Positions 2,966 through 48,797 of a stretch of 64,000 nucleotides of DNA are shown piece by piece. Both the position numbers and the translations under genes were made by a program. Within the stretch, counting starts at the first letter, position 1, and every line of letters starts with the position of its first letter. Location of the stretch: positions 101,361-165,360 of the forward strand of contig JAVYRZ010000001.1 in assembly GCA_038729465.1 (NCBI GenBank). Reading direction: 5' to 3'. The notes below the pieces were generated by a model. That model was not told where the DNA came from, searched no databases, and saw only the letters and a program-made list of their open reading frames with translations. Origin of the DNA: Thermoplasmata archaeon. GTDB taxonomy: Archaea; Thermoplasmatota; Thermoplasmata; Thermoplasmatales; ARK-15.

Positions 2966-3065
2966 CCCGGCTTAGCTCAGAGGTAGAGCGGCGGACTGTA
3001 GTGTTGGCATAGAAATTTCCGCCGCAGAAATCCGCTTGTCCCCGGTTCGACTCCGGGAGCCGGGA
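2966..3065 (+). tRNA. tRNA-Tyr (anticodon GTA at 2998-3000) with a 28-nt intron at the canonical 37/38 position (about 3002-3029)
   Basis: Hand-folded cloverleaf: acceptor cccggct/agccggg, D arm gctc/gagc, anticodon stem gcgga/tccgc restored only after removing tgttggcatagaaatttccgccgcagaa, T arm cccgg-ttcgact-ccggg. Confidence 0.85.
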
Positions 3066-5685: not shown

Positions 5686-5706
5686 ATCTCACAGTGAGTA
5701 TTGGGG

Positions 5707-10598: not shown

Positions 10599-10776
10599 TT
10601 TAGAAAGATAAGTATATAATGGTTAATTAAAATTATGCTTTTTGATATTTTAATATAAAGATAATATAAAAATACGAGTATATTTAAAAAACAATTTCTC
10701 ATACCAAAGAAAAGTTAAGGAAAGATAAAAAAATTAAAATAAAGATATACTTTATCAATAAGATGAGCTGATATAT

Positions 10777-23775: not shown

Positions 23776-24396
23776 TTAATTTTTTTTAGCTATGTAGAGC
23801 AAAGAATTTTTTTTATATAATTTTTTATTTATAAATCTATCTTTTTCATAAGTTTTTTTCTCTATGATCTCAAAATCTTTTAATAAATTTAGAATCTCAA
23901 GATTTTCAAAATAATGAGTAACTATATTATTTCCCCTTAAATATGTATATTCTTCTACGGGATATCCCTTACCAACTCTGAAATCATTTATATCGAATAC
24001 TTCCAAAAATAACATGCCATCATATTTTAGTAGCTTATAAACAAGATTAATTATTTTTTCTCGTTCGTTTTTCAAAAAATGATCCAATATATGGATCATC
24101 AGAATCTTATCAAAAGTTTCATCTTTAAATGGTGGTGATAAAATATCTCCCTGCACTAATTCAGTATTAGTTTTTATTAGCTTGAGAGCATAAATAGATA
24201 CATCTAATCCTATAATATTGTATCCCTCATCATAAATTGGAGTAAGAGTTTTACCATTGCCACAACCCACATCCAGAATAAAATCGTCATTATTTAAAAA
24301 CATTAAAATGTCATTCAAATTGTAATTTTTGCCTCTCCATAATATTCCTCTTCTACGGTACTCTAGATCCCATGCTCTCTTTGTCTTTAAGTCCAT
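23776..24396 (-). CDS. Class I SAM-dependent methyltransferase
   Basis: Motif I ILDVGCGNGK, 206 aa. Confidence 0.7.
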   Translation of the reverse strand: MDLKTKRAWDLEYRRRGILWRGKNYNLNDILMFLNNDDFILDVGCGNGKTLTPIYDEGYNIIGLDVSIYALKLIKTNTELVQGDILSPPFKDETFDKILMIHILDHFLKNEREKIINLVYKLLKYDGMLFLEVFDINDFRVGKGYPVEEYTYLRGNNIVTHYFENLEILNLLKDFEIIEKKTYEKDRFINKKLYKKNSLLYIAKKN

Positions 24397-24399
24397 AAT

Positions 24400-25122
24400 T
24401 CAATATTCTTTCAATTTTGCAGCAATGTTCATTGCTAGTTCAACATCCTCCATTTCCATCGCCAGGTCTGCTGCAGAATCATAGATATCTGAATATGAGT
24501 TTTTAAAAGCTTTTCTCTCTGTTTTTTTGAGGGATTTAGTATATGAATCTATTAGGTCAATGGCCGACATTAAATATTCCAATGCTTTGTTAAGTTCCCC
24601 ATGCTCTCTCTCTAAATAGCTTATGTTTTGTAATGAAAGGACAAAATTCTCTAAATCTTTGTTTTTTTCAGATATATCTTTGGCTTTTTTAAAATACTCC
24701 ATTGCTTTTTCTTTATCTGACCAGTAAAGTATTCCAAGATGGTTGAATATTTCAGCTTCTATGTATTGGTTTTTATTTTTTAATGCCAGATCCAACGCTT
24801 TTTGCAAATTATCTTCCGCATTTTTCTGGTCGTTTTCAAGATCTATAGTGCTCAGATATATGAGATCTTTAGCTATTTTTAAGTCGTCTCCTTCGTTAAT
24901 ATGTATTTCTAAAGCTTTTTCTGCATATTCTTTGCTCTTAGAAATATCTGCCGGAGAATTATATAGGTAACACTGTGAAATTTTCAAAAGTAAGTTTGAC
25001 AAAAATAAGGCATCATTTTCTTTGTAATCAGAATATATCTGTAAATATCCTTTCAAAGCCCTAGAAAACTCTTCTTTGTCATATAGCTTGTCTGAGTCCT
25101 TTAATAATTTTTCATCTACCAT
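24400..25122 (-). CDS. TPR-repeat protein
   Basis: 240 aa of repeated 34-aa helical units (A..Y..AL.....). No catalytic motif. Confidence 0.55.
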   Translation of the reverse strand: MVDEKLLKDSDKLYDKEEFSRALKGYLQIYSDYKENDALFLSNLLLKISQCYLYNSPADISKSKEYAEKALEIHINEGDDLKIAKDLIYLSTIDLENDQKNAEDNLQKALDLALKNKNQYIEAEIFNHLGILYWSDKEKAMEYFKKAKDISEKNKDLENFVLSLQNISYLEREHGELNKALEYLMSAIDLIDSYTKSLKKTERKAFKNSYSDIYDSAADLAMEMEDVELAMNIAAKLKEY

Positions 25123-25215
25123 ATCTGGGATTATAAATTCTAATAATTTAAATGTAACGCCTTGGAATATAAAAAATTAATATTTATAATAACATTATTA
25201 TTTATATGTAATAAG

Positions 25216-25245
25216 ATTTATTTTTTTTAAATTTATTTTTTTTAA
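25216..25245. repeat. Perfect tandem 2 x 15 nt (atttattttttttaa) inside a 458-bp extremely AT-rich spacer
   Basis: Read directly: 25216-25230 and 25231-25245 are identical. Confidence 0.9.
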
Positions 25246-25580
25246 ATTTTTAAATATTAACTGCGAATTTATATATAATAATATAAAAATATTAATTACA
25301 AAAAAATAAAGAAAATAAAACATAACTAAAAACATTTATCATAAACACTTTTAAAGGTAAATACTTGTAAATTTTATTTTTATATAATTAATTTTTTTAA
25401 AAAAATATTTATATAAAATATATACTATTAATATTATATATGTTGAGCTTGTTAAAATATTTGTAAAAAAATATAAAGAAAATAGGCTAAAAAATAAAAA
25501 ACCTTAAATATGCAAATTTTATCATCGGAATTGTTTTATCAATCATTAAAGAGATAAACCTTTAATGGAGGTTAAAAAAG

Positions 25581-25985
25581 ATGGTAGTTGGAATTCACAT
25601 AATATTGGACTTCTACGGAGTAGACGAAGAGATCTTGAACTATGTAGAGAGCATGAAACCTATATTCGAGAATACAGCAAAAGAGGCTAAGCTTACTAAA
25701 ATATCTTCCGATTATTATCAGTTCAGGCCAAAAGGATGCTCTGGCATAATTTTACTTGCAGAATCTCATTTATCCTTTCACACTTGGCCAGAATATAAAC
25801 TGGTCACGCTAGATATTTTTACCTGCGGGGATCAAAAGCAGGCATATAGTGCATTTTATATTTTAGAAAAATACCTAAAACCTACAAAAGTATCTCAATG
25901 CATAATTGAGAGAGGCACTGATGCACCTGAAAAAACCTATCCTGAAATCTCTACCGAAGAGATAAAAATTTCAGATCTAAATTAA
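25581..25985 (+). CDS. speH: S-adenosylmethionine decarboxylase proenzyme (pyruvoyl, SpeH type)
   Basis: 134 aa with the self-cleavage motif [19 protein letters not shown] is 8 nt upstream of the ATG. Confidence 0.85.
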
Positions 25986-25996
25986 AGGTTATTATT

Positions 25997-26542
25997 ATGT
26001 TTACTATTGTTCCGTCTAAAGTTTTTTTTACAAAAGGAATTGGAAGACATAAAAGTAAATTGGGCTCTTTTGAAAGAGCCCTAAGAGATGCAGAAATTGC
26101 ACAGTTTAACCTGGTAGAAGTCAGTTCGATATTTCCACCTAATGCAGAGATAATATCTAAAGAGGAAGGATTGTCAGTCTTAAAGTCTGGACAAATCCTG
26201 TTTTTAGTACTTGCACAAAATTCTTCTGATGAACTTAATAGATTAATATCTGCTGCTGTAGGATTGGCGATTCCTAAAGATAGAAAAATGTACGGTTATT
26301 TAAGTGAGCATCATAGTTTTGGAGAAACTGAACAGACAGCAGGAGAGTTTGCTGAAGATCTAGCAGCAGAGATGCTGGCATCTACACTTGGAATAGAATC
26401 ACATCTGGTATGGGATGAAACTAAAGGTATTTACAAGCTTGATGATAGAATATTACTAACACAACATACTGTAAGTACTACAACTGTAGAGAAGCCATCA
26501 GAATGGACCACTACATTGGCCGCCGCAGTACTCATTCCTTAA
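25997..26542 (+). CDS. pdaD: Pyruvoyl-dependent arginine decarboxylase
   Basis: 181 aa, with a PvlArgDC-family pattern including the [11 protein letters not shown] cleavage region. Confidence 0.8.
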
Positions 26543-27418
26543 ATCTTTAGCAGTGTTGTGAGCTAATTTTATTGGCTCTGGTGAGCCTTTCTTTGTCAGA
26601 TTTTTTATTATTTTGTATGCACTTTCTATAGATATTTTATGGCCGGGGGAAATATAATTTTTTTGTAGGATCTTCCCAACTAAGGCATCATCTAAATATA
26701 TCCTGTTATCTAAAACATTTCCAGTTAAAAGAGATTTTGCAACACCTATTGTAGTAATATCTAGTTTTACCCCAACATAGGATGCTATTCCGAATCTGGA
26801 GGGATGCAGTATTCCATTTCCATCAATAATTAATATCCCATCCTTATCAGCATATTTTAATATCAAATCTCCTTCCCGATACGAAAAATAGGTTGGGATA
26901 TAAGGGAAAGAAACAGTGTCGATATACGTTTTTGTGGATACAATATCCCCGGTTCTTAAATTAAATTTAACAAAGGCTATGAATGATAAATTCCTAAAAT
27001 ATGAAACATCCACCCCAGTAACAAAATATGAATCAATAGAATCTTGCAAAATCACTTTTTTAGATAATTCAATTTGTTCTTTCTTTAACTTTTGAAGTGG
27101 ATAATCGGATTTAAAATCTGTAAAAAGTATGTTTTTAAAGTCTATAATTCTACCTCTGTCTACAGTTACTCCTTCTCTCTTCAAAAGATTAATTTTCTCT
27201 GAGATGCCGTTTGGATGTGTGAACCCACCTAGAGTCCCATCTGAACTAACAACCCTATGGCAAGGAATAATAACTGGCTCGGGATTCTGAGATAACATTA
27301 CTCCTACCGCACGTGCAGCAATTGGGTCACCTAATGCATTTGCTAGCGATCCATAAGTTGATACCCTCCCAGGCGGGATCTGTTTGACGAGAGCATAGAA
27401 AATTGAAAATAAATCCAT
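26498..27418 (-). CDS. Fusion protein: O6-alkylguanine-DNA alkyltransferase domain (N-terminal) + endonuclease V domain (C-terminal)
   Basis: N-terminal half has IPCHRVV active site and GRVSTYG. C-terminal half has EndoV-like [29 protein letters not shown] and GVAKS. Confidence 0.8.
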
Positions 27419-34365: not shown

Positions 34366-35847
34366 ATGAAAATGTTAGAACCACTTGAACCAGAATTAAA
34401 TAAGTTTTTTGGATCAGAGTCAGCAATGTCGTTAATACTTGTTGGAGCGGCCGGTACGGGTAAAACTACCTTCGCACTTCAGATTTTAGAATCTTTTAAG
34501 GATAAATATAAAGGCATCTATTTATCAACCAGAGTCGGTGATACAGCGCTATATCAACAGTTTTCATGGATAAAAGAGCTTGAAGAGAAGACTAAGATAA
34601 TAGATGCTGGCAGGCTATTTTTGGATAGCTTAAAGATAGCAGAGCCAGAAATAGAACCAGAGCATGTAGAGGCTGCAAGAGCCCTAGTTAGAAATATATA
34701 TAGAGAAGAGCCTAACAAAGTATCAAGGGTATTATACAACAAATATTTTAAAGATCTTAAGATCCCAGAGCTAAAGCGTATTTATAATGAGGTAGATAAT
34801 AATCTTCCAGGCAGAACAATGATGGTGATTGATAGTATAGAAGGATTGGCAAGCAAATACCGAATCAATGAAGAAGATCTAGTATACACACTCGTAAAAG
34901 ATCTAGTCGAGGGCGGGAATACAAACATCATATTTATTTTAGAAAAGGAGCGATCAGATAAGTTAGAGTATATAGCAGATGGTGTAATATTTTTGGAACA
35001 ATATCTGTATGAAGGGCGCAGAATAAGGAGTTTATCTTTAGATAAATTGAGAGGGATCAGCACGAACTTTAAAAAATACTTATTTACTTTAAATGGAGGG
35101 AAATTCAAAATATTGGCTCCAAAAATAGTGTTTGACTTAAACAAACGTTTTACTACTCCGATCCCTCCAACAGATAGATATTTTAGCACCGGTGTTAAAG
35201 ATCTGGATACTATTTTAGGTGGTGGTTTCAGTTTTGGCACTTTTAATTTGATAGAGATAGGCGAAAATGTGGGACAGGAACATCATTTTTTAACTATGCC
35301 AATTCTGTCCAACGTTGGCTTTTTAGATAGAGGTATAATGGTAGTTTTGGCACTTGGAACATCAATTGAAGAAGTTAGAAATAGGTATAGTATATATATG
35401 GGCAATAAGACGGTGGTAGATACACACGCAATTTTTATAGACTATTCCAAATCCAGCAGTGATAAAAAATATATAATTCCACTTGGTAGTGCTAGTAGGG
35501 AAACATCAATAAAATTGATACAGGAAGGAATAACCAATCTTAAGAAGTTTGGTTCTCCTTTGTTTTATTATTTGGCATTTGACACAATCGAAAGATATAG
35601 AGGGCCCGTGGCAATTCAAGAGGTAGTAAATTTCGTAAATAATATAATAGACAACAAAGACATTGGGATTGGATTATTGTTGCCAGGAAGTGAAATCAAA
35701 GATCAAATAGTGAACATGGCAAGCACGCATGTTAAGGTAGTTTCTATAAATAATACGCTATGTATATATGGAATAGAACCAAAGACAAATATGTATGCGA
35801 TAGAATCAAACGATAAGGAATTTTACAAGTTTGTGCCTATACTCTAG
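34366..35847 (+). CDS. Two-domain KaiC/RecA-superfamily ATPase; first domain with intact P-loop, second domain degenerate
   Basis: Domain 1 has LILVGAAGTGKTTFALQ and MMVIDSIEGL. Domain 2 has STGVKDLDTILGGGFSFGTFNLIEIGENVGQEHH, a KaiC-like lead-in with no GK[ST]. Confidence 0.65.
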   Translation: MKMLEPLEPELNKFFGSESAMSLILVGAAGTGKTTFALQILESFKDKYKGIYLSTRVGDTALYQQFSWIKELEEKTKIIDAGRLFLDSLKIAEPEIEPEHVEAARALVRNIYREEPNKVSRVLYNKYFKDLKIPELKRIYNEVDNNLPGRTMMVIDSIEGLASKYRINEEDLVYTLVKDLVEGGNTNIIFILEKERSDKLEYIADGVIFLEQYLYEGRRIRSLSLDKLRGISTNFKKYLFTLNGGKFKILAPKIVFDLNKRFTTPIPPTDRYFSTGVKDLDTILGGGFSFGTFNLIEIGENVGQEHHFLTMPILSNVGFLDRGIMVVLALGTSIEEVRNRYSIYMGNKTVVDTHAIFIDYSKSSSDKKYIIPLGSASRETSIKLIQEGITNLKKFGSPLFYYLAFDTIERYRGPVAIQEVVNFVNNIIDNKDIGIGLLLPGSEIKDQIVNMASTHVKVVSINNTLCIYGIEPKTNMYAIESNDKEFYKFVPIL

Positions 35848-37765
35848 TCCTGTTTTTTATTTCATCCGGATTAGTGGTAATGATATTGTTTTCAAAGTCA
35901 GTACTGTATATTCTAATTGGCACTTTTACAGATCCAGCAATTAAATAAGCTCTCGAATATCCTTGATACTTTGGATTGATGTTGCTAAGTATAAGTTCTT
36001 CCTCTTTATCGCTCAGTTTATAAAATGCCTTCATGTTCTGGGTGATCTGATTATGTTTAAACAGCACATGAAACACAGCATTCTGTGCTATTGTCCGTCC
36101 TTCTTCATACTCTAAAAAGTCATCCGCTTTCTGTGATATTAATATTACAGAGCATTTCCAGCGTCTGACATGTCTCACCAGCTGTTCTAATAGCATTGCT
36201 GCAGACTTATTTTTAAGCAACTTCCATACTTCGTCAATAACAAGTATCTTAGCCGAGTAATCTTTGGAGATCTGGTTGTAAAGATATTCTACGGTCAAAA
36301 GAACATAGAACATCAGAAGATCTTCATTTACATCTTTAATGTTAAAAACAGTAAAATTATTGTTTAAATTAATAGTTGTGTCGTTATTCAAATTTTTTAA
36401 TGATCCTTCCAAAAAACTTGAAAATAAAATACTTAGTTTGCTTTCATTCAATAACTCAATAAAATCTTTAAATTTAGGGCTCTTACTTTCCTGATATAAT
36501 CTATTAAGATAAACATCAAGTATTGCCAAATCATTTTTATCAAATTCAAATATTGAACTAAATAACAGTTTCAGCCTGGATATTTTGTTAGGAATTGTAG
36601 AATCAAAAAGATCGAAAGGATTAATTACTGTTTTACCAACATCTATCACTGTACCTTTCATGGCATTAGCAAGATCCACAAACTCATTCATCGGGTCTAT
36701 TATGTAAATTTTTGTATCTGGATGATGCAACAATTCTCTCAATATCTGTGTTTTCACAAAATATGATTTGCCAAAACCTGTGGTGCCTGTAACAAGCATA
36801 TGACTTGATGGAAAATACCATCGATTTATAAATATTGGGCTGTTATTTACATCGTTCATACCCCAAAAAATGCCATCTTTCATAGCAATCAGGTCTGTTA
36901 AAAATGGGAACATAGTTGCAAGTGCTTGTGACTGGATATATTTGTCATCTTTATAATTCCTGGTGCCAGAACTTAAAAATGCCAAAAATGCCTGTTTTTG
37001 TAAATATTTAGAGAATGCTGGTTTAAACAGAGATTTCTGTAACTTATTTTTTATAAAATCTGCATTTTTTCGCATATTTTTATAATCTTTTGCTATAGGA
37101 TAGAATATTAAGGTTACTCTGTATACTGTTCCTTTACCAGATACTATATAATTTTGCAAACTTTTAGAACTTTCATACTTTAGCTTCAGATCCATATATC
37201 TAGCCCTGTTTTTTTGTCTTACATTCACCAATTCTGTTTCAATGGTTTCAGATTCGACTTCTAACATTGTTAATAATTTGTTAGAAGGAACATGCTCACA
37301 GGCTATCGAGATATTTGTTGGCATGTCTGCATTCACAAACTCTGAAAAAAATCCATAAACTAAGTTTTTTGGCCATTTTGCTATAATTAGTGGCTGGATA
37401 AAAAGGTCATGAAAAAGGTAATGGTCCTTTTCGAAAACAATCTTTTTATTTGTCAAAATCCTTTTTTGATATTTGTCATTTACCTCCACTTTTTCAAAGT
37501 CTACAATAAGAATAATACTAGTAATCGAACTGAAAAACCAGCAAGTGTGATAGGGATCCAGAATAATTATAAATATTATAAACAATAGTGCTGAAACAAA
37601 TATCCATTTTTTAAGATTATAATTTCTGAGATAATATACAAAGTCTAATAATAATAGTAGCAAAGTAAGACCGAACATAGAACTGTTAAATAAAGTATAT
37701 ATTCCACTTAGAAAAGTTAGAATAAAGAATACCAGCCCCAGATTGTCTGAATTGATAAATTTCAT
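35837..37765 (-). CDS. VirB4/TrbE/CedB-like membrane-anchored P-loop ATPase
   Basis: 642 aa with 3-4 N-terminal TM helices, Walker A LVTGTTGFGKSYF, Walker B ILVIDEVWKLL, VILISQKADDF, and an NPFDLF motif after the P-loop, as in T4SS VirB4/TraC ATPases. Confidence 0.65.
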   Translation of the reverse strand: MKFINSDNLGLVFFILTFLSGIYTLFNSSMFGLTLLLLLLDFVYYLRNYNLKKWIFVSALLFIIFIIILDPYHTCWFFSSITSIILIVDFEKVEVNDKYQKRILTNKKIVFEKDHYLFHDLFIQPLIIAKWPKNLVYGFFSEFVNADMPTNISIACEHVPSNKLLTMLEVESETIETELVNVRQKNRARYMDLKLKYESSKSLQNYIVSGKGTVYRVTLIFYPIAKDYKNMRKNADFIKNKLQKSLFKPAFSKYLQKQAFLAFLSSGTRNYKDDKYIQSQALATMFPFLTDLIAMKDGIFWGMNDVNNSPIFINRWYFPSSHMLVTGTTGFGKSYFVKTQILRELLHHPDTKIYIIDPMNEFVDLANAMKGTVIDVGKTVINPFDLFDSTIPNKISRLKLLFSSIFEFDKNDLAILDVYLNRLYQESKSPKFKDFIELLNESKLSILFSSFLEGSLKNLNNDTTINLNNNFTVFNIKDVNEDLLMFYVLLTVEYLYNQISKDYSAKILVIDEVWKLLKNKSAAMLLEQLVRHVRRWKCSVILISQKADDFLEYEEGRTIAQNAVFHVLFKHNQITQNMKAFYKLSDKEEELILSNINPKYQGYSRAYLIAGSVKVPIRIYSTDFENNIITTNPDEIKNRTRV

Positions 37766-37770
37766 AAGTT

Positions 37771-38547
37771 CTATACACCTTCATTTATAAGGCTATAAAA
37801 GTCCAAAATTTCAGAACCGTTAAGGATATTGCAATCGATTTTTATGTTTTTTAGTGCGTTTATTATCTGTTCAGCTCTGTTGTTCAATATAATACTTACT
37901 TTTTCTAATCGTTCATCTTTAGAAACAGTGCTGAGCTCTAAACTATTCTGCTTTAATATTATGTAATACTTATACAGCACTTGCTCTGTATATAATGACT
38001 TTACAAGTGTTATATATTGATTTCCTGCCTCTTCAAATTTTTCAGAAATATGTAGGTAATGGTCACAGTCAAATTTAGAAGCTATTATCTTTATATCAAA
38101 ATCAAAGTCTATTCCGTTTAAGATATTTATAAACTCTAAATATACCTTTTTCTGTTCTTCTTCACTGTAGAATTTAAGATTTAAGCCAGTAGTTTCGATA
38201 ATTAACAAGTATAAACCCCCCAAATAAACAATATTCTCTTTTATATCATAAATTTCTATAAGCTTTTTAAAATCATTGTCAATATATATTTTTTTACTGA
38301 ATTTATATCTCAAATACTTAAAAAAATAAAGATCAGAATCTTCATTCTCTATTTTAAAATAAACAGCAAATACAGTAATTAAAGATAAAATTATAAGATA
38401 AATAGATAAAAAGATAGTCAAAACAGCAACTATCAATAAATATATTGCAATGCGCATCATCTGATTTAAATCGAAAGGTCCAATTATTGTTCTAACCCCT
38501 AACTTTTCAGGTATATCAACTGATCCGGCCATTAGTCTCTCCTCCAT
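37771..38547 (-). CDS. Membrane protein with VirB3/TcpE-like TM hairpin plus VirB4 N-domain-like segment
   Basis: 258 aa. TM hairpin RIAIYLLIVAVLTIFLSIYLIILSLITVFAVYF. The segment IVYLGGLYLLIIETTGLNLKFYSEEEQKKVYLEFINIL resembles the N-domain of Gram-positive/archaeal VirB4-type ATPases. 5 nt upstream of the ATPase gene. Confidence 0.45.
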   Translation of the reverse strand: MEERLMAGSVDIPEKLGVRTIIGPFDLNQMMRIAIYLLIVAVLTIFLSIYLIILSLITVFAVYFKIENEDSDLYFFKYLRYKFSKKIYIDNDFKKLIEIYDIKENIVYLGGLYLLIIETTGLNLKFYSEEEQKKVYLEFINILNGIDFDFDIKIIASKFDCDHYLHISEKFEEAGNQYITLVKSLYTEQVLYKYYIILKQNSLELSTVSKDERLEKVSIILNNRAEQIINALKNIKIDCNILNGSEILDFYSLINEGV

Positions 38548-38559
38548 AGTTTTAAATTT

Positions 38560-40875
38560 TTACGGAAACTTCTTGAAATATTCTCTAATAGTTTTGAGCG
38601 ATACAGAAAATACTTTTCTGGATCCATCTTCAACGATTAATCTGTCCCCTCCAACAGTGCCTATATTGTATATATCTAAACCATCCATAATTTTTAAGAA
38701 TATTGTTTCATTTTTAGGTTCTACTTCAACGATCCATCTTGTGTTGCTTTCTGAAAAAAGTTTGAAATCAGTTCTCAATATTCCAAGAGGTTTTAAGTTA
38801 ATCTTTGCCCCAATATTTCCGCCAATAGCCATTTCCGCAATTGCTATAGCTAGCCCGCCCTGCGAAATATCATGGGCGCTTCTGATCACTTTTTTATTCG
38901 ATGCTACTAGCATCTTATCTATGCTATCTCTTAAATTTTTAAAATTGCTCTTTGGAATATTTGTACTTTTTATCTGCCTCAAGGCATAGTATTCACTGCC
39001 ACCCATCTCTGCTTTTGTAGCACCTATAACATATAATAAATTTCCATCATCTTTTAGATCTGAGGTCAAACAATATTTTATATTTTCCACTATTCCAATA
39101 GCCATTATTGTAGGCGTGGGAACGATGGATACCCCAAAATTTGCATTGTACAAACTCACATTTCCTGAAACATAAGGAATCTTTAAAAATCTTGCAATAT
39201 CCCCTAGCCCTCTTACTGACTCTTCCAGCTGCCCCATTACCACAGGATCTTCAGGATTGCCAAAATTTAAATTATCTGCAAAAGAATGTGGCCTGGCACC
39301 CACAGAAACCAAATTTCTGACTGCTTCATCTACTGCGGCTATACTTCCCCAGTATGGATCTAGCTCTGTAAGTCTTGGGTTAACATCGGTGGTAACAGCT
39401 AATCCTTTATTTGAGTGATCCAGCGGTTTTAATACTGCTGCATCTCCATGTGTTTCCATGCCAATTTTACCCTGCAGAGGCTTGATAACAGTTCTACCCT
39501 TTACTTCATGATCATACTGCCTGATTATAAACTCTTTACTTGCAATGTTGGAACTCGATAATAACTTAAGAAAAGAATCTTTATAGTTTGTTTCTGAAGG
39601 AAGCATTTCTACTTTTTCCTGCGCTGGATATTTTACAATAGAGGGCCTGCAGTATAAAGGCCCAGAAGTTAAAAAAACGAGATCCAAGTCTAAGATTTTG
39701 ATGCTGCTATAATATATATTCAGTCTTTCAGAATCTATGGTTTTACCAATTACTGTCGCTTCAACATCCCATAAACTGAATATATCTAAGACCTTTTTTG
39801 TATTTTTCTCTGATACCGCCAACATCAATCTTTCCTGAGACTCACTTACCCATATCTCCCATGGAGCCATATTCGGTTCTTTTAAAGGAACTCGATCCAG
39901 ATATACATTAGCACCAACACCCCCTGCTAAACACATCTCTCCTATTACAGAAGACAACCCGCCACCGCCGAGATCCTTCATTCCGGTGATCAATTTTTTA
40001 CTATTTGCTTCCAGTACCGCTTTTATCAAGGGCTCTTTTATTATAGGATTACCTAACTGTACCGCAGTTTTTTCAGACTCACTTTTATTACTTAAAACTT
40101 TAGATGCAAAATTTACTCCATGTATTCCATCTCTGCCTGTTTTACCACCCACAAGTATTAGATTATACCCGACTTTATCTATCCTGCTTCTCACGATATC
40201 TGTTTTTTTTGCAATACCTATACACCCTACATTTACAAGAATGTTATTTAAAAAAGAGCTATGAAAATATGTCATTCCTCCGATAGTAGGTATTCCCACT
40301 CGGTTACCATAATCTCTTATTCCAGCTACAACTCCATTAAACAAATAGATTGGATGCTTCACTCCTTCTTTTAATTTTTCATACGGATAATCCAAGGGCC
40401 CAAAAAAGAGCGGATCTACCAGGGCAATTGGTTTTGCACCCATGTTTAAAACATCTCTGATTATTCCTCCAACGCCAGTAGCAGCTCCACCATATGGTTC
40501 TACAAAACTGGGGTGATTATGTGACTCCATCTTAAAAACGTACGCGTGTGTTTTATCAAATTCTACCACTGCCGCATCATCCTGTATAACTACTATGTTT
40601 TGAGGTGCATCAATACCAAAAATATATTTTTTAAGCAGGTTTTTTGAAGACTTATAACAACAATGTTCGCTCCATGCCTGTGCTATAGCCTGCAGCTCAA
40701 CGTCTGTTGGGTCTCTCTCGAGATCTTTGAAATAGGTCCTCAGCCGATGCAATTCCTCGTAATTCAATCCTAGATTCATCAGCTCATTTAATCTTAATAG
40801 CTCTTCATCACTCAAAGATCTGATATGTATCTCGTAAATCTCAAACGGATAATCTAATTTCTTAAGCATATTCAA
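38560..40875 (-). CDS. purL: Phosphoribosylformylglycinamidine synthase subunit II
   Basis: 771 aa with SHNHPS, duplicated GGGGLS-type AIR-synthase-like domains and an N-terminal linker typical of PurL. Confidence 0.9.
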   Translation of the reverse strand: MNMLKKLDYPFEIYEIHIRSLSDEELLRLNELMNLGLNYEELHRLRTYFKDLERDPTDVELQAIAQAWSEHCCYKSSKNLLKKYIFGIDAPQNIVVIQDDAAVVEFDKTHAYVFKMESHNHPSFVEPYGGAATGVGGIIRDVLNMGAKPIALVDPLFFGPLDYPYEKLKEGVKHPIYLFNGVVAGIRDYGNRVGIPTIGGMTYFHSSFLNNILVNVGCIGIAKKTDIVRSRIDKVGYNLILVGGKTGRDGIHGVNFASKVLSNKSESEKTAVQLGNPIIKEPLIKAVLEANSKKLITGMKDLGGGGLSSVIGEMCLAGGVGANVYLDRVPLKEPNMAPWEIWVSESQERLMLAVSEKNTKKVLDIFSLWDVEATVIGKTIDSERLNIYYSSIKILDLDLVFLTSGPLYCRPSIVKYPAQEKVEMLPSETNYKDSFLKLLSSSNIASKEFIIRQYDHEVKGRTVIKPLQGKIGMETHGDAAVLKPLDHSNKGLAVTTDVNPRLTELDPYWGSIAAVDEAVRNLVSVGARPHSFADNLNFGNPEDPVVMGQLEESVRGLGDIARFLKIPYVSGNVSLYNANFGVSIVPTPTIMAIGIVENIKYCLTSDLKDDGNLLYVIGATKAEMGGSEYYALRQIKSTNIPKSNFKNLRDSIDKMLVASNKKVIRSAHDISQGGLAIAIAEMAIGGNIGAKINLKPLGILRTDFKLFSESNTRWIVEVEPKNETIFLKIMDGLDIYNIGTVGGDRLIVEDGSRKVFSVSLKTIREYFKKFP

Positions 40876-41142
40876 TTATACTCTCTCAATACTTATTGAA
40901 TAGTCATGTATTACAGGATTTGCTAATAATCTTTTACACATTTGTTCAGCATCTTTTTTTGCATCTGATACGTCATCATGATCTAATAATATTTCATACT
41001 CTTTATATACGCTAGTTTTTTTAACATTTTTAAAATTTAGAATATTTAATGTTTTTGTAATAGCTAATCCTTCTGGATCCTCTACTCCTTCTTTTAGTTT
41101 TATTGTTATGAGTAATTTTATCATCACAATAGTGGATTGCAT
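40876..41142 (-). CDS. purS: Phosphoribosylformylglycinamidine synthase subunit PurS
   Basis: IKLKEGVEDPEG motif, immediately upstream of purL. The true start may be the internal ATG at 41124. Confidence 0.75.
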   Translation of the reverse strand: MQSTIVMIKLLITIKLKEGVEDPEGLAITKTLNILNFKNVKKTSVYKEYEILLDHDDVSDAKKDAEQMCKRLLANPVIHDYSISIERV

Positions 41143-41357: not shown

Positions 41358-41442
41358 GCGGAGGTTGCCGAGCTAGGTTAAAGGTGCAAGATTCAGGGTC
41401 TTGTCTCATAGGAGTTCGCCGGTTCAAATCCGGCCCTCCGCA
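41358..41442 (+). tRNA. tRNA-Leu (anticodon CAG) with long variable arm
   Basis: Acceptor gcggagg/cctccgc, anticodon stem caaga/tcttg with loop ttCAGgg, variable arm tctcataggagttc, T arm gccgg-ttcaaat-ccggc. Confidence 0.9.
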
Positions 41443-41719
41443 CTATATTTTTATAACAGTCTAAAAATTCAGGTAACTTAATATATAAAATACTAATACA
41501 GATATTTATGCCAAAAAAATGCCCATTTAATATAATCTTTACAAAAATCTATTACCGAATATCAAGAAGAGCAGGCAAGAAAATTTCAATTAAGACTTTA
41601 AAAGATAAATAACCTGATAATGCACTGGTCATAAAAGTAGTTATTTTATGATATTAATTTAATATTATTCAATATAATCAATAATTTTAATATACAGTAT
41701 TTATTATCCCTCTGCTATC

Positions 41720-44644: not shown

Positions 44645-44717
44645 GGGCCGGTAGATCAGCTGGTAGATCGTTTGCTTCGCAAGCAAAAGGCCTCGGGTTC
44701 AAATCCCGACCGGTCCA
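44645..44717 (+). tRNA. tRNA-Ala (anticodon CGC)
   Basis: Acceptor gggccgg/ccggtcc with the G3:U70 identity pair, anticodon stem tttgc/gcaaa with loop ttCGCaa, T arm tcggg-ttcaaat-cccga. Confidence 0.9.
44699..44717 (+). repeat. attL-like core: last 19 nt of tRNA-Ala (tcaaatcccgaccggtcca)
   Basis: Repeated at 47783-47801 with one mismatch. Confidence 0.8.
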
Positions 44718-45131
44718 TTTAGTAATTATTGGAATAATTTAAGTCTAGATTCTTTGAATATCTTAAAATGATTATCTAGAGTGTAAAAATTATAACAGTT
44801 ATCGATTGCATATATTTTGACCACTTTTTATATACCATTCTACGTGGGCTTATCATTCCTTATAATTTGATATAGTCTTATCAATATATTATGTATTGAG
44901 TATACATCATGTCCTTTATTTGGAAGATAAAGAAACATTCAGGAACACAACTTGAAAAGGTAGAATCTATATTTGAGAATGGACAAACAAGGCAGAAGGT
45001 CTATTACTACATAGGAAAGTAGATTGAAGGAAAGCCTGTTTAGAGAATTGTATCAAAATCCGTCAGAGTGAAGCTTTGGGCGGATCATACGTATGCACCA
45101 AAATGTGTGCATGTTAACTTTTGGTGATTGT

Positions 45132-45404
45132 ATGAACCTCGTGGAACGTTTCGTTATCATCCTCATTTCTTTCATTTCCCTGGGATTTTTTTATCAATAC
45201 AATATTGGAACAAACAACTTACCACTTTATTCAATTTTCCTTAGAATTCTGTGGTTAGAACTAACGATTAGCTTATTAGTATATACCGTATTTAAAATGG
45301 ACACGAAAAGATATCCATTCTTATTAGGCTTATTTACTTTTGGAGGTCTATGGTTTATTATTAAGCACAGAAATAAGCAAGTATGGTTTACTAAGCTAAG
45401 ATAG
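45132..45404 (+). CDS. Small membrane protein (about 3 TM), island cargo
   Basis: Hydrophobic segments FVIILISFISLGFF, ILWLELTISLLVYTVF and FLLGLFTFGGLWFII. The start is uncertain (track start 45093). Confidence 0.4.
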   Translation: MNLVERFVIILISFISLGFFYQYNIGTNNLPLYSIFLRILWLELTISLLVYTVFKMDTKRYPFLLGLFTFGGLWFIIKHRNKQVWFTKLR

Positions 45405-45590
45405 AGCAAAATTCCTTTATAAGGCCCTTTGTCGAAAAGTGTGTAACTTGAATATAAGCCGTTTGATCCGATTTTTATTTGATTTTATGCTTGTCGGTAA
45501 TATTTATATTGAAAACGATTTAAGCAATAAAACGCAGGTTTTATTTCAATTTCTTTGACATTTTCCGATACAAGAAAGTGTATGTAAAAA

Positions 45591-45603
45591 TTTATATATA
45601 AAA
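45591..45603 (+). promoter_or_regulatory. TATA-box-like element (tttatatataaaa) about 26 nt upstream of the 45622 ATG, compatible with a leaderless transcript
   Basis: Position and sequence relative to the ATG only. No experimental support. Confidence 0.35.
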
Positions 45604-45621
45604 TAGTCATATTTATATTGT

Positions 45622-46263
45622 ATGACTTGCAGTAATTGTTTTGATTCAAAGGGAAGGAAAATAACCAAGATAAGTGTACCACATACAGAGACCTATGAGC
45701 TCGGGAAAGCTAAAGCAACTGAGGGAGTTACTGTTGTGCAATTTAAGGAAGGCCCTGCGGCAATCCTCAACTGGAAATATATCATTGAGGGAGAAACTTC
45801 ATCAAACGCTTCAATTACATACATAATACAACACAACGGGAAAACAATAACAAACAAGTTCAAGACAAAGTATGTTGACACTATCAGTGGCAAAAAAATT
45901 GTTCATGTTGAAGGAAGTGGGTTGAGCTCAGATGGCAAAGTTACTATCACAAACAAGAATGTTGCTCTTTCAAACGTGAAATCAGACCCAAACGCTATTG
46001 AATGCCTTATTTGCCACGCACTTGGAACTGTGCTTTGTACCATTCTTGCTGATGGAGTTTCAGAAGATTTGGCTTGTGAAGAAGCATCAGCTATTGTTTG
46101 CCTAGAATTCATTGAGGACCCTATAGTTTATGTTGTCTGTTTTGGGGTTGTGGCATCTATCTGCGATGTTGTTCTTCAGACAATAATAGATATCGGTGTC
46201 CATGTGGCTTGCGAATTAGGTGCTGATTATATATGTGAGAAAGCAACGGGGTGCTCTCTGTGA
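45622..46263 (+). CDS. Halocin C8-like archaeocin precursor candidate: beta-rich N-terminal domain + hydrophobic C-terminal domain with 10 Cys
   Basis: 213 aa. Residues about 128-211 (CLICHALGTVLC...ACEE...IVC...VVC...SIC...VAC...YICEKATGC) contain exactly 10 Cys in a hydrophobic 84-aa stretch, resembling the 10-Cys mature HalC8 peptide as I recall it. Confidence 0.55.
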   Translation: MTCSNCFDSKGRKITKISVPHTETYELGKAKATEGVTVVQFKEGPAAILNWKYIIEGETSSNASITYIIQHNGKTITNKFKTKYVDTISGKKIVHVEGSGLSSDGKVTITNKNVALSNVKSDPNAIECLICHALGTVLCTILADGVSEDLACEEASAIVCLEFIEDPIVYVVCFGVVASICDVVLQTIIDIGVHVACELGADYICEKATGCSL

Positions 46264-46306
46264 TACATTTGAATAGCTATACTCACACATAAGAAGGTGT
46301 CTTTCT

Positions 46307-46834
46307 ATGAGGTATAGGTTGGTTTATATAGGTTTAGGCATCGCAATTATGGTTGTTGACACCGTGTTCGCTCTCAGATACCCACGAATCTTAATTTACA
46401 GTTTCTTTGGATCTTATATTGGATTCTTTATACCATTTGGAATAGGTCTATCAACTTTCCTGTATGGTGTATTTAAGGCACGGGATTACGGAATAAACAC
46501 TGCAATGGGGATTTTGGGCTCTGGAGGATTTACAAGGGTCCTGAGACAAAACAGAATACAAGGAACCAGAACATGGAAAACTGACCATGATATCCTCTCT
46601 GAACTTCCAGGTGCAGTAAAATCACCCGACGGAAAAACTGTAGAATACAGTAATCTCTTCATTAGAAAGCCCTATGGAACAACAAAATATTCAAGAAGAC
46701 TTAACGAAGCCGCTAATAAATACCTAAATGGTGAATTGGATGATGAAGGCTTTTATAAGTACATCGGAAAGCACGGTTCAAAAGAGGAGCAGATGCTCGA
46801 TTTCATTAAGAAATTTAAGAATGCTTATAAATGA
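46307..46834 (+). CDS. Membrane protein (3 N-terminal TM + about 90-aa basic soluble tail), island cargo
   Basis: ORF with the hydrophobic segments LVYIGLGIAIMVVDTVFAL, ILIYSFFGSYIGFFIPFGIGLSTFLYGVF. No recognised domain. Confidence 0.45.
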   Translation: MRYRLVYIGLGIAIMVVDTVFALRYPRILIYSFFGSYIGFFIPFGIGLSTFLYGVFKARDYGINTAMGILGSGGFTRVLRQNRIQGTRTWKTDHDILSELPGAVKSPDGKTVEYSNLFIRKPYGTTKYSRRLNEAANKYLNGELDDEGFYKYIGKHGSKEEQMLDFIKKFKNAYK

Positions 46835-46843
46835 AGTGGTAAA

Positions 46844-47092
46844 ATGGTTAGATTTCATCCAGTAAACCGGACAATGACAATTGGTACGTTCATGTTTATC
46901 GTATCTTTGATCGTGCTGGCAATTGGTTCTATATCCCATACCAATGGAACAGTCTTAGCTTACTGTTTTCTGTACGGAGGTCTTGCTTTCCTAGTCTCCT
47001 TAATCTTGTTGACAATAGGCTTAATACTGGGGGCTAGAAGCGGAAAGTTGCAAAGGAGAGGCAGTGATATATTCCACAAAGAGAAGAAATAA
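46844..47092 (+). CDS. Small 2-TM protein, island cargo
   Basis: 82 aa with hydrophobic segments TIGTFMFIVSLIVLAIG and AYCFLYGGLAFLVSLILLTIGLILGA. Confidence 0.45.
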   Translation: MVRFHPVNRTMTIGTFMFIVSLIVLAIGSISHTNGTVLAYCFLYGGLAFLVSLILLTIGLILGARSGKLQRRGSDIFHKEKK

Positions 47093-47130
47093 AATGTTTG
47101 TTAAGCATGTTAGAATAGCTTGGTGATAAA

Positions 47131-47388
47131 ATGAAAGATAAACTAGGTGAAGATGTTAGTCCTGTAAAGATAGGATTTTTCATTGCATTTGTAGTTGTAC
47201 TTGCCTTTGGACTAATTTCTGTGTTTATATTGCATTCACATATACTTGCTTTCATTACAATTCCTTTGATTTTCATACTCTTCATCATAACGGTCATTTT
47301 TCAATATAAAGATGTAAAAAGTGGTGCTTATCAGAGAAAGATGGACAAACTCTGGCAGAACACAAAGGATAAATATTATAGGAAGTGA
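47131..47388 (+). CDS. Small 2-TM protein, island cargo
   Basis: 85 aa with hydrophobic segments IGFFIAFVVVLAFGLISVFIL and ILAFITIPLIFILFIITVIF. Confidence 0.45.
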   Translation: MKDKLGEDVSPVKIGFFIAFVVVLAFGLISVFILHSHILAFITIPLIFILFIITVIFQYKDVKSGAYQRKMDKLWQNTKDKYYRK

Positions 47389-47633
47389 GAATTATGATAA
47401 ACTCTGAAAAAATCCTTTTGAAAGCGGGTATTTATGCCCTTCTCGTATATTCTCTTATTTCTATAGTATCGTATTTTGCACTTTACTTTAGAAAAATAGG
47501 TAATTTTACAAACTTGCTGAATTCTGGTATCGATGTTTTGCTTTTCATTCCGCTGTATGTAATAATTTTAGTATTGTATTTCTCCTACATCAGGGTAATC
47601 GATAGAAATGGTCAACATGGAAAAACTCTGTGA
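47385..47633 (+). CDS. Small 2-TM protein, island cargo
   Basis: 82 aa. 4-nt overlap with the preceding ORF. Hydrophobic segments AGIYALLVYSLISIVSYFALYF and VLLFIPLYVIILVLYF. Confidence 0.45.
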   Translation: MRIMINSEKILLKAGIYALLVYSLISIVSYFALYFRKIGNFTNLLNSGIDVLLFIPLYVIILVLYFSYIRVIDRNGQHGKTL

Positions 47634-47778
47634 AAGCTTAAAAGACGGAAACCTATAAACTCAAATAATAACCTGGAATTTCCATTAATGGATAAGAATC
47701 AGGTCTAAGTGTAATTCAAAATATTTTATTGCTTTATTTTAGGTAATAGATCCTTATTTTTAGTATCCCCTTAAAACT

Positions 47779-48257
47779 TTAATCAAATACCGACCGGTCC
47801 ACACCATCCAGATCCACTAGTTTTTGTACTGTCAGAAAAAAGTTCGATTTTCTCACCTCGTTTATGGCGTCATCTCGAGATGGATGCAGATAGATCTGCG
47901 TACTAGACAGGTTTCTATGCCTAATAATAGAGCAACATAATAGACAGACAGTCCTTTTTTCAATAATTCTGTGGCATAGGTATGCCTGGCCATATGCAGG
48001 TGAAACTTGACCTCAGCTTTTAAGGATATACGTTCGCAGAGGCTTCTGAAATAGTCATACCTCATCTTTCCTATTTTTGTAGTGAAAAGATACTTTTTAG
48101 TAGTGTGTAATCTCACTTTCAGATACTCATCAATTGCATATCTGAATGCGACACACAACATAATGAAAAAAGCAATTTCCGAAGCATTTAGAGGCGGGAT
48201 AGAGAGTATTGGGTTATACCCGCAAAATTTAAGCATCAAAGAGATTATAACTTTCAA
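47779..48257 (-). pseudogene. Tyrosine recombinase (integrase) remnant: N-terminally truncated and frameshifted
   Basis: The track ORF carries HLHMARHTYATELLKKG...LLLG. After an apparent 1-nt deletion near 47919/47920, the adjacent frame reads HRNLSSTQIYLH (box II with catalytic Tyr codon at 47890-47892). That frame continues through the att repeat to a stop at 47779-47781. Confidence 0.75.
47783..47801 (+). repeat. attR-like copy of the tRNA-Ala 3' end (tcaaataccgaccggtcca, 18/19 identical)
   Basis: Direct comparison with 44699-44717. It lies inside the 3' coding end of the integrase pseudogene. Confidence 0.8.
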
Positions 48258-48367
48258 AGATGGCTGTTAACATGGTTAACAAAAATCATAACCTGGTCAT
48301 TGAGAAGACAGGAAAGCATAAAATTAATATTCTCAAAAAGGTTTAGGTCATTGTCAAGTAAACCTTT

Positions 48368-48772
48368 TTGATAGAAGGAAAGAAGATAGATATGACAGGT
48401 TGGTATTTTGATCATTCAAAAGGAAAGCAAGTATTTGGTTTGCAGCTAGTTAATTCTGTTTATTCGGAGGGCTATGGAATATATCCAATAATATTAACAC
48501 CTTACAAAAAAAATAACAGCACAGAGAAATACAGATCAAAAATAGAGAATCAAAAAGATAACATCAAAAAGTGTTTAGATAACAATTTGAAATTTAGCAC
48601 AGTAGTAATGGATAACTGGTATTTTAGTAATGATTCAGTGCAATATATAGAATCATTTAGGGAGAGCAGGGTTGCAGAGACGAAACTAAATCGATTAATT
48701 AACGTAGCTGATGAATTAGTAAAGAAGAGTATTTCAAATGCATATAAATCAACAATGGCGTTAAAAACATGA
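48368..48772 (+). pseudogene. DDE transposase fragment (IS4/IS701-like), truncated
   Basis: 134 aa containing the VVMDNWYFSNDSV-type second-Asp region and a GWYFDHSKGK segment. Full-length enzymes are about three times longer. Out-of-frame debris (LVIEKTGKH) lies upstream at about 48272-48343. Confidence 0.5.
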
Positions 48773-48797
48773 AAAACGCAAAATAGCAGTAAATAAT

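Follow-up and report, generated by a model that had tools for sequence, protein, structure and literature searches.

We analysed a 64-kb stretch of a Thermoplasmata genome (the window) in which two minus-strand open reading frames (ORFs), here called gene 1 and gene 2, are packed behind the purine biosynthesis genes purS and purL. The initial annotation had described them as an orphan VirB3/VirB4-like pair in a housekeeping context, perhaps a domesticated, chromosomal translocation module. Both ORFs are present, purS and purL are confirmed by Pfam, and the spacers read from the sequence are 12 nt between purL and gene 1 and 5 nt between gene 1 and gene 2, as it had given them.

37771..38547, minus strand: gene 1, an ORF of 258 amino acids (aa); probable start at ATG 38532, giving 253 aa
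35837..37765, minus strand: gene 2, 642 aa, a predicted membrane-anchored VirB4 core
38560-40875, minus strand: purL, directly upstream of gene 1 (Pfam AIRS, AIRS_C, FGAR-AT linker)
40876-41142, minus strand: purS, upstream of purL (Pfam PurS, 6e-25)
38538..38544, minus strand: GGAGGAG, a Shine-Dalgarno (SD)-like motif 7 nt before ATG 38532

The start region of gene 1 reads ATG-GAGGAGAGACTA-ATG, with GGAGGAG 7 nt 5′ of the second ATG (38532). Homologues of gene 1 start at the equivalent position, and gene callers on three other contigs call a 253-aa product. ATG 38532 therefore appears to be the likelier start, with a product of 253 aa. The GGAGGAG motif would suit translation of gene 1 from within a purS-purL transcript, and the ATG of gene 2 is preceded at 9 nt by AGGTG.

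VirB4 identity and the divided N-terminal domain

Profile and structure searches place gene 2 among the VirB4 ATPases and indicate that gene 1 carries the N-terminal part of the same protein. The predicted domains and motifs of the two proteins, including transmembrane (TM) segments read from hydropathy and from AlphaFold2 (AF2) models, are as follows.

37481..37765, minus strand: N-terminal 3-4 TM helices of gene 2, residues 1-95 (hydropathy and AF2 helices)
36866..37468, minus strand: rest of the VirB4 N-terminal domain, gene 2 residues ~100-300 (CD1110 match, TrwK alignment)
35840..36865, minus strand: RecA-like ATPase domain, gene 2 residues 301-642
36758-36796, minus strand: Walker A LVTGTTGFGKSYF, gene 2 residues 324-336
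gene 2 residues 382-387: NPFDLF motif
36215-36247, minus strand: Walker B ILVIDEVWKLL, gene 2 residues 507-517
36116-36169, minus strand: RRWKC...ISQ, in the gene 2 ATPase domain
gene 2 residues 541-550: ILISQKADDF
38362..38475, minus strand: PrgI/VirB3-like TM hairpin, gene 1 residues 25-62 (two TM segments by hydropathy)
37774..38286, minus strand: TrsD-like, VirB4-N-terminal-like soluble domain, gene 1 residues ~88-258
gene 1 residues 114-139: segment LLIIETTGLNLKFYSEEEQKKVYLEF

The motifs and the 3-4 N-terminal TM helices that the initial annotation had read in gene 2 are all there, in the order it stated; hydropathy places three TM segments within residues 1-70, and the AF2 model places four helices within residues 6-92. 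Across 27 homologues, G330, G332, K333, S334, D511, E512 and R534 are invariant, and the Walker A, Walker B and arginine motifs, as read from the alignment, are intact. Among NCBIfam models, CD1110-type VirB4 matches at 3.1e-61 (gene 2 residues 88-594 on profile positions 175-717 of 752) and Mbov_0397 VirB4 (VirB4_plasma) at 7.4e-51 (profile positions 290-848), followed by weaker matches to TraC-F (4.7e-32) and VirB4_CagE (1.1e-22). The CedB model (NF041017) reaches 5.5e-13, or 48.4 bits against a cutoff of 700, on residues 293-552 alone. Pfam scores exceed the cutoffs for AAA_10 (50.8 against 27.5), P-loop_TraG (43.4 against 25.8) and DUF87 (43.5 against 23.2), and PHROGs gave generic P-loop matches only. 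Gene 2 stays below the NCBIfam VirB4 equivalog cutoffs (207.6 against 325, 172.8 against 590, 110.8 against 567 and 80.1 against 643), the equivalogs compared being CD1110, Mbov_0397, TraC-F, VirB4_CagE and TrbE, and is a member of the VirB4/TraC/TrbE superfamily outside these named subfamilies. A sequence search of the Protein Data Bank (PDB) gave a sole match, the C-terminal domain of Thermoanaerobacter (T. pseudethanolicus) VirB4 (4AG5, 1.8e-12). The AF2 model, made with 27 homologues, has a mean predicted local distance difference test (pLDDT) score of 79; its top 17 Foldseek matches are all VirB4, among them R388 TrwK (6e-22 over ~590 columns, the N-domain region included), and its TM-score to the target is 0.79 for 4AG5. 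By sequence profile, by search against solved structures and by predicted fold, gene 2 is a true VirB4, and the VirB4-type call made for it holds.

Some of these matches would also be expected of a HerA-like or defence-type ATPase (MADS mad8 or HerA-Sir2-like) that takes no part in secretion. The PADLOC model mad8 matches gene 2 at 2.4e-20, on the P-loop domain alone, and HerA models match at ~1e-5; DUF87, the HerA central domain, is above its cutoff; the NCBIfam HerA model reaches E 0.008 across 49 residues; and HerA and HerA-Sir2 structures match at ~1e-11 in Foldseek. However, the VirB4 profiles score better by 40 orders of magnitude and span ~500 residues including the N-domain, the leading structural matches are VirB4, gene 1 is a homologue of the VirB4 N-terminus, and VirB2-like and VirB6-like genes are present in the sister clusters described below. 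Neither NurA nor Sir2 nor any other MADS gene lies near the pair, no HerA, ParA or Rad50 gene adjoins it, and the neighbouring genes, tested against defence models, add no match to that of mad8 on gene 2. At the family level this reading is already refuted, and we hold it to be very improbable; assignment to HerA or another non-VirB4 clade, against which the initial annotation had set its call, did not arise (VirB4 6e-22 against HerA ~1e-11).

Gene 1 had been read as a VirB3-like hairpin followed by a segment resembling the VirB4 N-domain, and the matches of its family bear this out. When 13 family members were scanned singly, eight matched PrgI, 11 VirB4_plasma and six TrsD/TraD. The best Pfam PrgI match is 1.1e-4, and the window copy gives TcpE alone (E 0.53); the best NCBIfam TrsD/TraD (NF041427) match is 4.3e-4, and the window copy fails E 0.1. 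The location of gene 1 next to VirB4 and its topology suit a VirB3-like partner, and its place upstream of VirB4 suits a TrsD-type protein. A PDB sequence search with gene 1 gave no match. TrsD, which occurs in the pGO1 subclass of the MPF_FATA class, is a remote homologue of the N-terminal part of VirB4. In Patescibacteria it is the commonest component of the type IV secretion systems (T4SS) and stands alone beside VirB4 in relaxase-less chromosomal systems (PMC12102498). Because of these family scans (PrgI, VirB4_plasma, TrsD) and the TrsD literature, gene 1 is taken, as a prediction, to be a VirB3/PrgI-like hairpin fused to a TrsD-like domain.

The same protein appears to complete gene 2. 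On the Mbov_0397 model, gene 1 matches positions 35-275 of 894 (1.6e-9). A hidden Markov model (HMM) of the gene 1 family, built from nine members (the window copy, three close homologues and five ~245-aa relatives), matches the N-terminal ~250 residues of unsplit VirB4s (P0025, P0028, P0029, P0030 and P0031) that came from the homologue search with the 642-aa gene 2 protein; in the 1071-aa P0025, residues 2-254 match at 1.4e-13. The residues that follow the gene-1-like part are colinear with gene 2 residues ~100-636 in P0025, P0028, P0030 and P0031. On this alignment, gene 1 is the missing N-terminus of the VirB4 of gene 2, and the VirB4-specific N-domain is divided over two polypeptides.

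The closest non-archaeal relatives of this VirB4 are in Patescibacteria (24-28% identity, tblastn ~1e-49 to 1e-58), where the ~570-aa VirB4s start at the equivalent of gene 2 residue ~101. The ORF directly upstream of VirB4 in ~70 Patescibacteria loci matches the gene 1 HMM over ~85-248 at 1e-9 to 1e-18; in nearly every fetched locus (L022-L092), this TrsD-like ORF ends ~100-300 nt before position 10001. By homology, the split VirB4 architecture is common to the Thermoplasmata relatives and Patescibacteria, that is, across domains. Two adjacent ORFs that jointly cover one VirB4 profile could also be a decaying pseudogene pair, with VirB4 broken by a frameshift or stop. However, the split is ancient and common to all Thermoplasmata relatives and to Patescibacteria, each piece has its own TM anchor and SD-like motif, the catalytic motifs are intact and dN/dS is ~0.09. 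The pseudogene reading is already refuted, and we assign it almost no probability.

Sister-lineage clusters and chromosomal setting

The next VirB4 relatives of gene 2 lie in other Thermoplasmata metagenome-assembled genomes (38-43% identity). Wherever the flank suffices, these sister VirB4s (513-553 aa) are the last gene of a compact co-directional cluster with the following order.

First gene, 110-115 aa: charged loop between two hydrophobic helices, plus a signal peptide; a VirB2-like pilin
Second gene, 334-347 aa: polytopic membrane protein, VirB6-like
Third gene, 235-249 aa: gene 1 homologue, TrsD-like
Fourth gene, 92-110 aa: TM protein, overlapping the VirB4 start
Fifth gene, 513-553 aa: VirB4

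This order of pilin, VirB6-like, TrsD-like, TM and VirB4 genes occurs on at least 10 distinct contigs. Pfam TrbC/VirB2 is found in six of nine members of the pilin-like family (best 6e-4, full-length) and T4SS_pilin in four of nine. The VirB6-like family is tiny, with 29 clusters among 1.84 billion representatives by full HMMER search, and Pfam TrbL/VirB6 matches one distant member in the homologous region (8.7e-4); PDB sequence searches with the VirB6-like and pilin-like profiles gave no match. The more distant and larger locus L105 holds an annotated TrbC-like pilin, a VirB6-like gene, a 262-aa gene and VirB4 in the same succession. Across species, the sister clusters occupy one chromosomal site, with GcvT and two ~80-aa genes upstream and an EndoV-MGMT fusion gene, PvlArgDC, AdoMetDC and Ogg in the downstream flank, and they contain no relaxase, coupling protein or integrase. 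In content and context, these clusters are predicted to be a domesticated minimal T4SS in the style of the archaeal DNA-import systems Ced and Ted, but in Thermoplasmatota and with a split VirB4 of the MPF_FATA type.

The EndoV-MGMT gene, an O6-alkylguanine-DNA alkyltransferase-endonuclease V fusion, is co-directional with VirB4 in several sister species and follows it after 16-35 nt (L003 6818-7717; L006 4336-5253; L007 13731-14630; L011 13522-14436), and Ogg glycosylase lies two or three genes beyond. This DNA-repair neighbourhood recalls Ced and Ted loci, perhaps by coincidence. The two conserved ~80-aa genes are on opposite strands just 5′ of the pilin-like gene (L001 7047-7505, L003 2125-2613, L007 9038-9526), and neither has a homologue in the window; the minus-strand gene (…SIGIKRGTKEILNKIS…) resembles a ribbon-helix-helix regulator.

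The window retains the ancestral neighbours of the sister clusters, at some distance from the pair.

25581-25985: AdoMetDC
25997-26542: PvlArgDC
26498-27418, minus strand: EndoV-MGMT, the homologue of the sister fusion gene
5701-6345: Ogg

EndoV-MGMT, PvlArgDC and AdoMetDC lie 8-10 kb from the pair, and ~8.4 kb of other genes set EndoV-MGMT apart from VirB4. In L001 and L002, VirB4 and EndoV are separated by purQ-purL-purS, which runs convergently; in the window, purS-purL is upstream of the pair and co-directional, and purQ is absent. Because the window keeps its ancestral neighbours 8-10 kb off and pur genes adjoin VirB4 in L001 and L002, although convergently, the pur adjacency is best read as a local rearrangement within a shared ancestral neighbourhood, not an invented functional operon; functional coupling is not indicated. 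purS-purL is a housekeeping operon with the pair packed at its 3′ end, and probably supplies the pair's promoter. A sigma-70 promoter and terminator scan saw no terminator-like site between purL and gene 1, although its counts equalled those of shuffles and such a scan is uninformative for an archaeon. From the 12-27-nt spacer, the SD-like motifs and the lack of a terminator-like element, read-through of gene 1 and gene 2 from the pur promoter is likely. The purine link that the initial annotation had found odd thus stands as packing behind purS-purL with likely read-through, and looks like a by-product of rearrangement. Its description of the pair as an orphan is likewise true locally, in a window that lacks the partners, but sister lineages encode VirB2-like and VirB6-like genes beside the same two genes.

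A further difference concerns the fourth gene of the cluster. Separate small TM ORFs lie upstream of VirB4 in L001, L003, L005, L006, L016-L018, L019 and L021, and this ~95-aa TM protein has no window match by tblastn or by HMM over every ORF. Residues 1-95 of gene 2 take its place (92 + 546 ~ 642), and align colinearly with the separate TM proteins at 18-26% identity. By position and topology only, the TM module appears to be fused to VirB4 in gene 2.

The order purS-purL-gene 1-gene 2 recurs on six further contigs with 89-100% protein identity. It is complete, together with a convergent KaiC/GvpD-like gene, in L004 (a JGI contig), L014 (Thermoplasmata isolate KM4364-13) and L015 (Thermoplasmatota isolate TVZ.SD19.217), at 89-94% protein identity; L014 and L015 are GTDB species representatives. 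The partial contigs L106-L108 show the same order and a gene 1 protein identical to the window copy. Between the window and L004, gene 1 has a dN/dS of 0.095 and gene 2 one of 0.080, compared with 0.069 for purL, 0.055 for HtpX, 0.115 for EF-1beta and 0.066 for the KaiC-like gene, and all three sub-regions of gene 2 are constrained, the TM part included. These values indicate that both genes are under purifying selection on par with their housekeeping neighbours, and the synteny indicates that the pair is chromosomal and vertically inherited. Chromosomal location, synteny between species and purifying selection together make domesticated, the term already proposed, a fair description of the pair.

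These observations bear on whether the pair is a remnant of an integrative and conjugative element (ICE) or plasmid that came to lie beside purL by chance. VirB4 is a signature of conjugative elements, the best profiles (CD1110, Mbov_0397) are of ICE type, GC content is slightly lower at 36-38 kb (0.304 against ~0.34), and an integrase fragment lies 9.3 kb away. Housekeeping genes nevertheless flank the pair on both sides in an order identical in L004, L014 and L015, the sister clusters share one conserved chromosomal site, dN/dS equals that of the neighbours, and a scan of viral and mobile contigs found no relatives of the pair. From 25.5 to 52.5 kb the genes are housekeeping save for a separate tRNA-Ala insertion; no relaxase, type IV coupling protein (T4CP) or pilin was found among the annotated genes of that interval, nor by family HMMs over all window ORFs, and no att-like repeats flank the pair. 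The initial annotation had seen no coupling protein, relaxase, pilin or integrase within 10 kb, which stands for the first three but not for the integrase, given the tyrosine-recombinase fragment at 9.3 kb. Because this fragment is part of the tRNA-Ala insertion, which is absent from L014, it is not tied to the pair. The ICE or plasmid reading is already largely refuted, and we consider it highly improbable; the related genomes hold the pair at fixed chromosomal loci, not inside an ICE, an arrangement that the initial annotation had named as contrary to its reading.

Proposed role and related systems

We propose that the pair is probably the working motor, separated from its partner genes, of a domesticated minimal T4SS. 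Gene 1 and gene 2 would form one VirB4-type secretion ATPase delivered as two polypeptides, with gene 1 supplying the PrgI/VirB3-like hairpin and the TrsD-like domain (the first ~250 residues of an unsplit VirB4), and gene 2 contributing the RecA-like ATPase domain, what remains of the N-domain and another three or four TM helices. The two proteins would assemble at the membrane into a VirB4-like oligomer, which could power assembly or transport through a VirB6-like channel with a VirB2-like pilus. The system would be a minimal, chromosomally fixed, type IV secretion-like machine of the MPF_FATA kind in a hot-spring Thermoplasmata group. In the window lineage, a local rearrangement would have parted the motor genes from the pilin and channel genes and left them behind purL, where they would be read through from the pur promoter and still kept by selection. 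By analogy with Ced and Ted, the substrate may be DNA exchanged between cells. Within the motor reading, we regard cell-to-cell DNA transfer as a tentative assignment, with somewhat less than an even chance, and it would need VirB6-like and VirB2-like partners encoded elsewhere in the genome.

Several points weigh against this proposal. Neither a VirB2-like pilin nor a VirB6-like homologue was found in the 64-kb window by tblastn or by HMM over every ORF, and protein searches tied no VirB2-like or VirB6-like gene to the window lineage. Physical association of gene 1 and gene 2 is presumed, and the AF2 model of gene 1, made from a 4-sequence alignment, has a pLDDT of 45. An HMM of nine TM proteins meets the gene 2 N-terminus at E 0.014 with strong composition bias, which is not significant. 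Spacing and SD-like motifs are the sole basis for co-transcription with purSL. That the substrate is DNA is put forward purely by analogy, with weak similarity to CedB, and we know of no substrate for the Patescibacteria relatives of this VirB4.

Sister lineages encode the partners, and one candidate for a dispersed partner emerged. P0049, a 356-aa VirB6-like protein, is the best new cluster of the 29 in the full HMMER search (1.5e-62 to the profile), with 33-37% identity to the sister-clade proteins, a divergence equal to that of window genes 1 and 2. Its gene stands alone between aminotransferase and Lyase_1 genes (10001-11071) on L093, a 15.6-kb ENA contig of 33% GC and metabolic context, which has no pilin, TrsD-like or VirB4 gene within its 15 kb. 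The tetranucleotide correlation of L093 with the window is r = 0.984, about equal to the lower end of the range for the window's own relatives (0.986-0.993), and all correlations of L093 with sister loci are ≤0.969. It is suggestive of a dispersed VirB6-like partner of the window lineage. Also on the adverse side, the link between L093 and the window is one of base composition alone, since the two have no gene in common, and a metagenome scan gave no further P0049-like loci. Contigs with the exact gene 1 protein of the window stem from other samples than L093. Because sister lineages encode the partners and a stand-alone VirB6-like gene lies on a contig of window-like composition, the partners may be elsewhere in this genome.

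Alternatively, the pilin and channel genes may be truly lost and the two-piece VirB4 kept for another membrane task, which could be a different translocation process or, given the purS-purL setting, a role in nucleotide economy. The lack of VirB2-like and VirB6-like homologues in 64 kb, and of any from the lineage in either protein search, would fit such a co-opted remnant, as would strong purifying selection despite the missing neighbours and the tight position behind purL in seven contigs, the window counted. However, VirB4 without VirB6 has no known function, and the absence of partners is not established: the search covered 64 kb out of the 165 kb or more that the contig spans, and the word-indexed search with a concatenated pilin and VirB6 profile, which returned sister-clade proteins only, was insensitive enough to miss P0049, found at 1.5e-62 by full HMMER. 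The stand-alone gene on L093 shows, moreover, that dispersal happens. We therefore judge a co-opted remnant to be unlikely, at about one chance in a handful. Less likely still, and doubtful in our view, is that hot-spring Thermoplasmata have a third, independently domesticated archaeal T4SS, made of a VirB2-like pilin, a VirB6-like channel and a split VirB4 and nearest to the chromosomal T4SS of Patescibacteria rather than to Ced or Ted, whose motor, in the window lineage, is wired into the purS-purL transcription unit so that expression of the DNA-uptake machinery tracks purine demand and imported DNA serves as both nucleotide source and repair template.

The proposed detached motor can be set against several known systems. 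One is TrsC-TrsD-TrsE of the staphylococcal plasmids pGO1 and pSK41, where a VirB3-like small membrane protein, TrsD and VirB4 follow one another as in the pair (PMC12102498). That system is plasmid-borne and conjugative, with a relaxase and a coupling protein, whereas the window genes are chromosomal; the window also joins the VirB3-like hairpin and the TrsD-like domain in one protein, its VirB4 bears an apparently fused additional TM module, and its gene 1 copy does not reach the TrsD model. The chromosomal, relaxase-less T4SS of Patescibacteria share the split, with a ~570-aa VirB4 directly preceded by a TrsD-like ORF, and have VirB2-, VirB3- and VirB6-like genes; in one strain such a system is essential for epibiotic growth (PMC12102498). 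They differ in being bacterial and in that their TrsD-like ORFs match the soluble domain alone (HMM ~85-248). The best structural match of gene 2, TrwK (VirB4) of the R388 TrwM(VirB3)-TrwK pair, belongs to a diderm conjugative machine; it is one chain of ~820 residues, 12-15% identical to gene 2, and itself lacks TM helices. Membrane anchoring of VirB4 is provided by VirB3, and fusions of the two are on record.

Among archaea, DNA is imported by two domesticated VirB2/VirB6/VirB4 systems, Ced in Sulfolobales/Desulfurococcales and Ted in Thermoproteales; experimentally, domesticated conjugation-derived DNA transfer is established in Thermoproteota only, and its investigators stated that they were aware of no further case (PMC9905601). 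Ced and Ted are chromosomal and relaxase-less and combine a VirB4-like ATPase with a VirB6-like channel and a VirB2-like pilin, exactly the content of the sister clusters. The sequence relationship is weak, the CedB model meeting the ATPase core alone (48 bits, cutoff 700); in contrast to both, the phylum is Thermoplasmatota, VirB4 is split with a TrsD-like partner, the pilin and channel genes are not adjacent in the window, and the system is known here from genes alone. The initial annotation had suggested a lineage in which no such system was defined. A chromosomal Thermoplasmata cluster of small and multipass membrane proteins with VirB4 is in fact listed, though unanalysed, in the genome paper of Cuniculiplasma divulgatum (CSP5_1185-1189 / CPM_1190-93; arCOG05340, arCOG04034 VirB4 and arCOG05369), to which we liken ours by that listing and not by sequences (PMC5155288). 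It is treated there as intact, whereas the window has the ATPase genes only, and in the literature searched the Thermoplasmata VirB4 cluster occupies no more than a line in genome descriptions (PMC5155288, PMC10354927). In the literature searched, we found no analysis of the cluster as Ced/Ted-like, of its split VirB4 or of its Patescibacteria kinship, and to that extent the suggestion stands. VirB4, the TrsD-like protein and the PrgI-like hairpin are known kinds, of which the detached, pur-embedded motor of the window is a further variant.

Thermoplasmata have no cell wall, and recombination among them is frequent in nature, with no known mechanism. A conserved, relaxase-less cluster of VirB2, VirB6 and split VirB4 at a fixed site is a concrete candidate for DNA exchange in this group. 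The shared split into a TrsD-like piece and a short VirB4 links these archaeal systems with the T4SS of Patescibacteria, which are enigmatic and in part essential, and results in either group should therefore inform the other. The window lineage is in addition a natural experiment, in which the motor is kept apart from, or without, its pilin and channel.

Other features of the window

Convergent to gene 2, with 3′ ends overlapping by 11 nt, is a two-domain KaiC/GvpD-like ATPase gene (34366-35847, plus strand; GvpD_P-loop 2e-18, KaiC 7e-16), an arrangement kept in L004, L014 and L015. Because it does not occur in the sister-lineage clusters, it is probably unrelated to VirB4. Besides this ATPase, the other neighbours are a tetratricopeptide repeat (TPR) protein, arginyl-tRNA synthetase (ArgRS), PAN, an MBF1-like helix-turn-helix protein and a phosphoribosyltransferase; on the pur side lie purL, purS, tRNA-Leu, HtpX, EF-1beta, a RecJ/GAN-like protein and Hel308. 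The tRNA-Leu (41358-41443) was called by ARAGORN and is below the Rfam gathering score.

The strain-specific insertion at tRNA-Ala covers 44645-48790 of the window; in L014, the RecJ-like and Hel308 genes are merely 113 nt apart, without it. The tRNA-Ala 3′ end (44699-44717, TCAAATCCCGACCGGTCCA) is repeated at 47783-47801 with 18 of 19 matches, bounding ~3.1 kb. Within it are a membrane ORF of 175 aa, a Cys-rich ORF of 213 aa and three small ORFs with two TM segments each. Similarity to TrbC or T4SS_pilin is absent from the small 2-TM ORFs at 45-47.6 kb. Past the repeat are a tyrosine-integrase C-terminal fragment (47862-48257, minus strand) and an ISC1217-like transposase scrap (48368-48772).

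The GC minimum of the window is 0.276 at 24001-26000, a stretch with the unannotated ORFs 23776-24396 and 24400-25122 (minus strand) and intergenic DNA before AdoMetDC. At 2966-3065 (plus strand), Rfam finds a tRNA spanning 100 nt that ARAGORN missed, which suggests an intron-containing archaeal tRNA.

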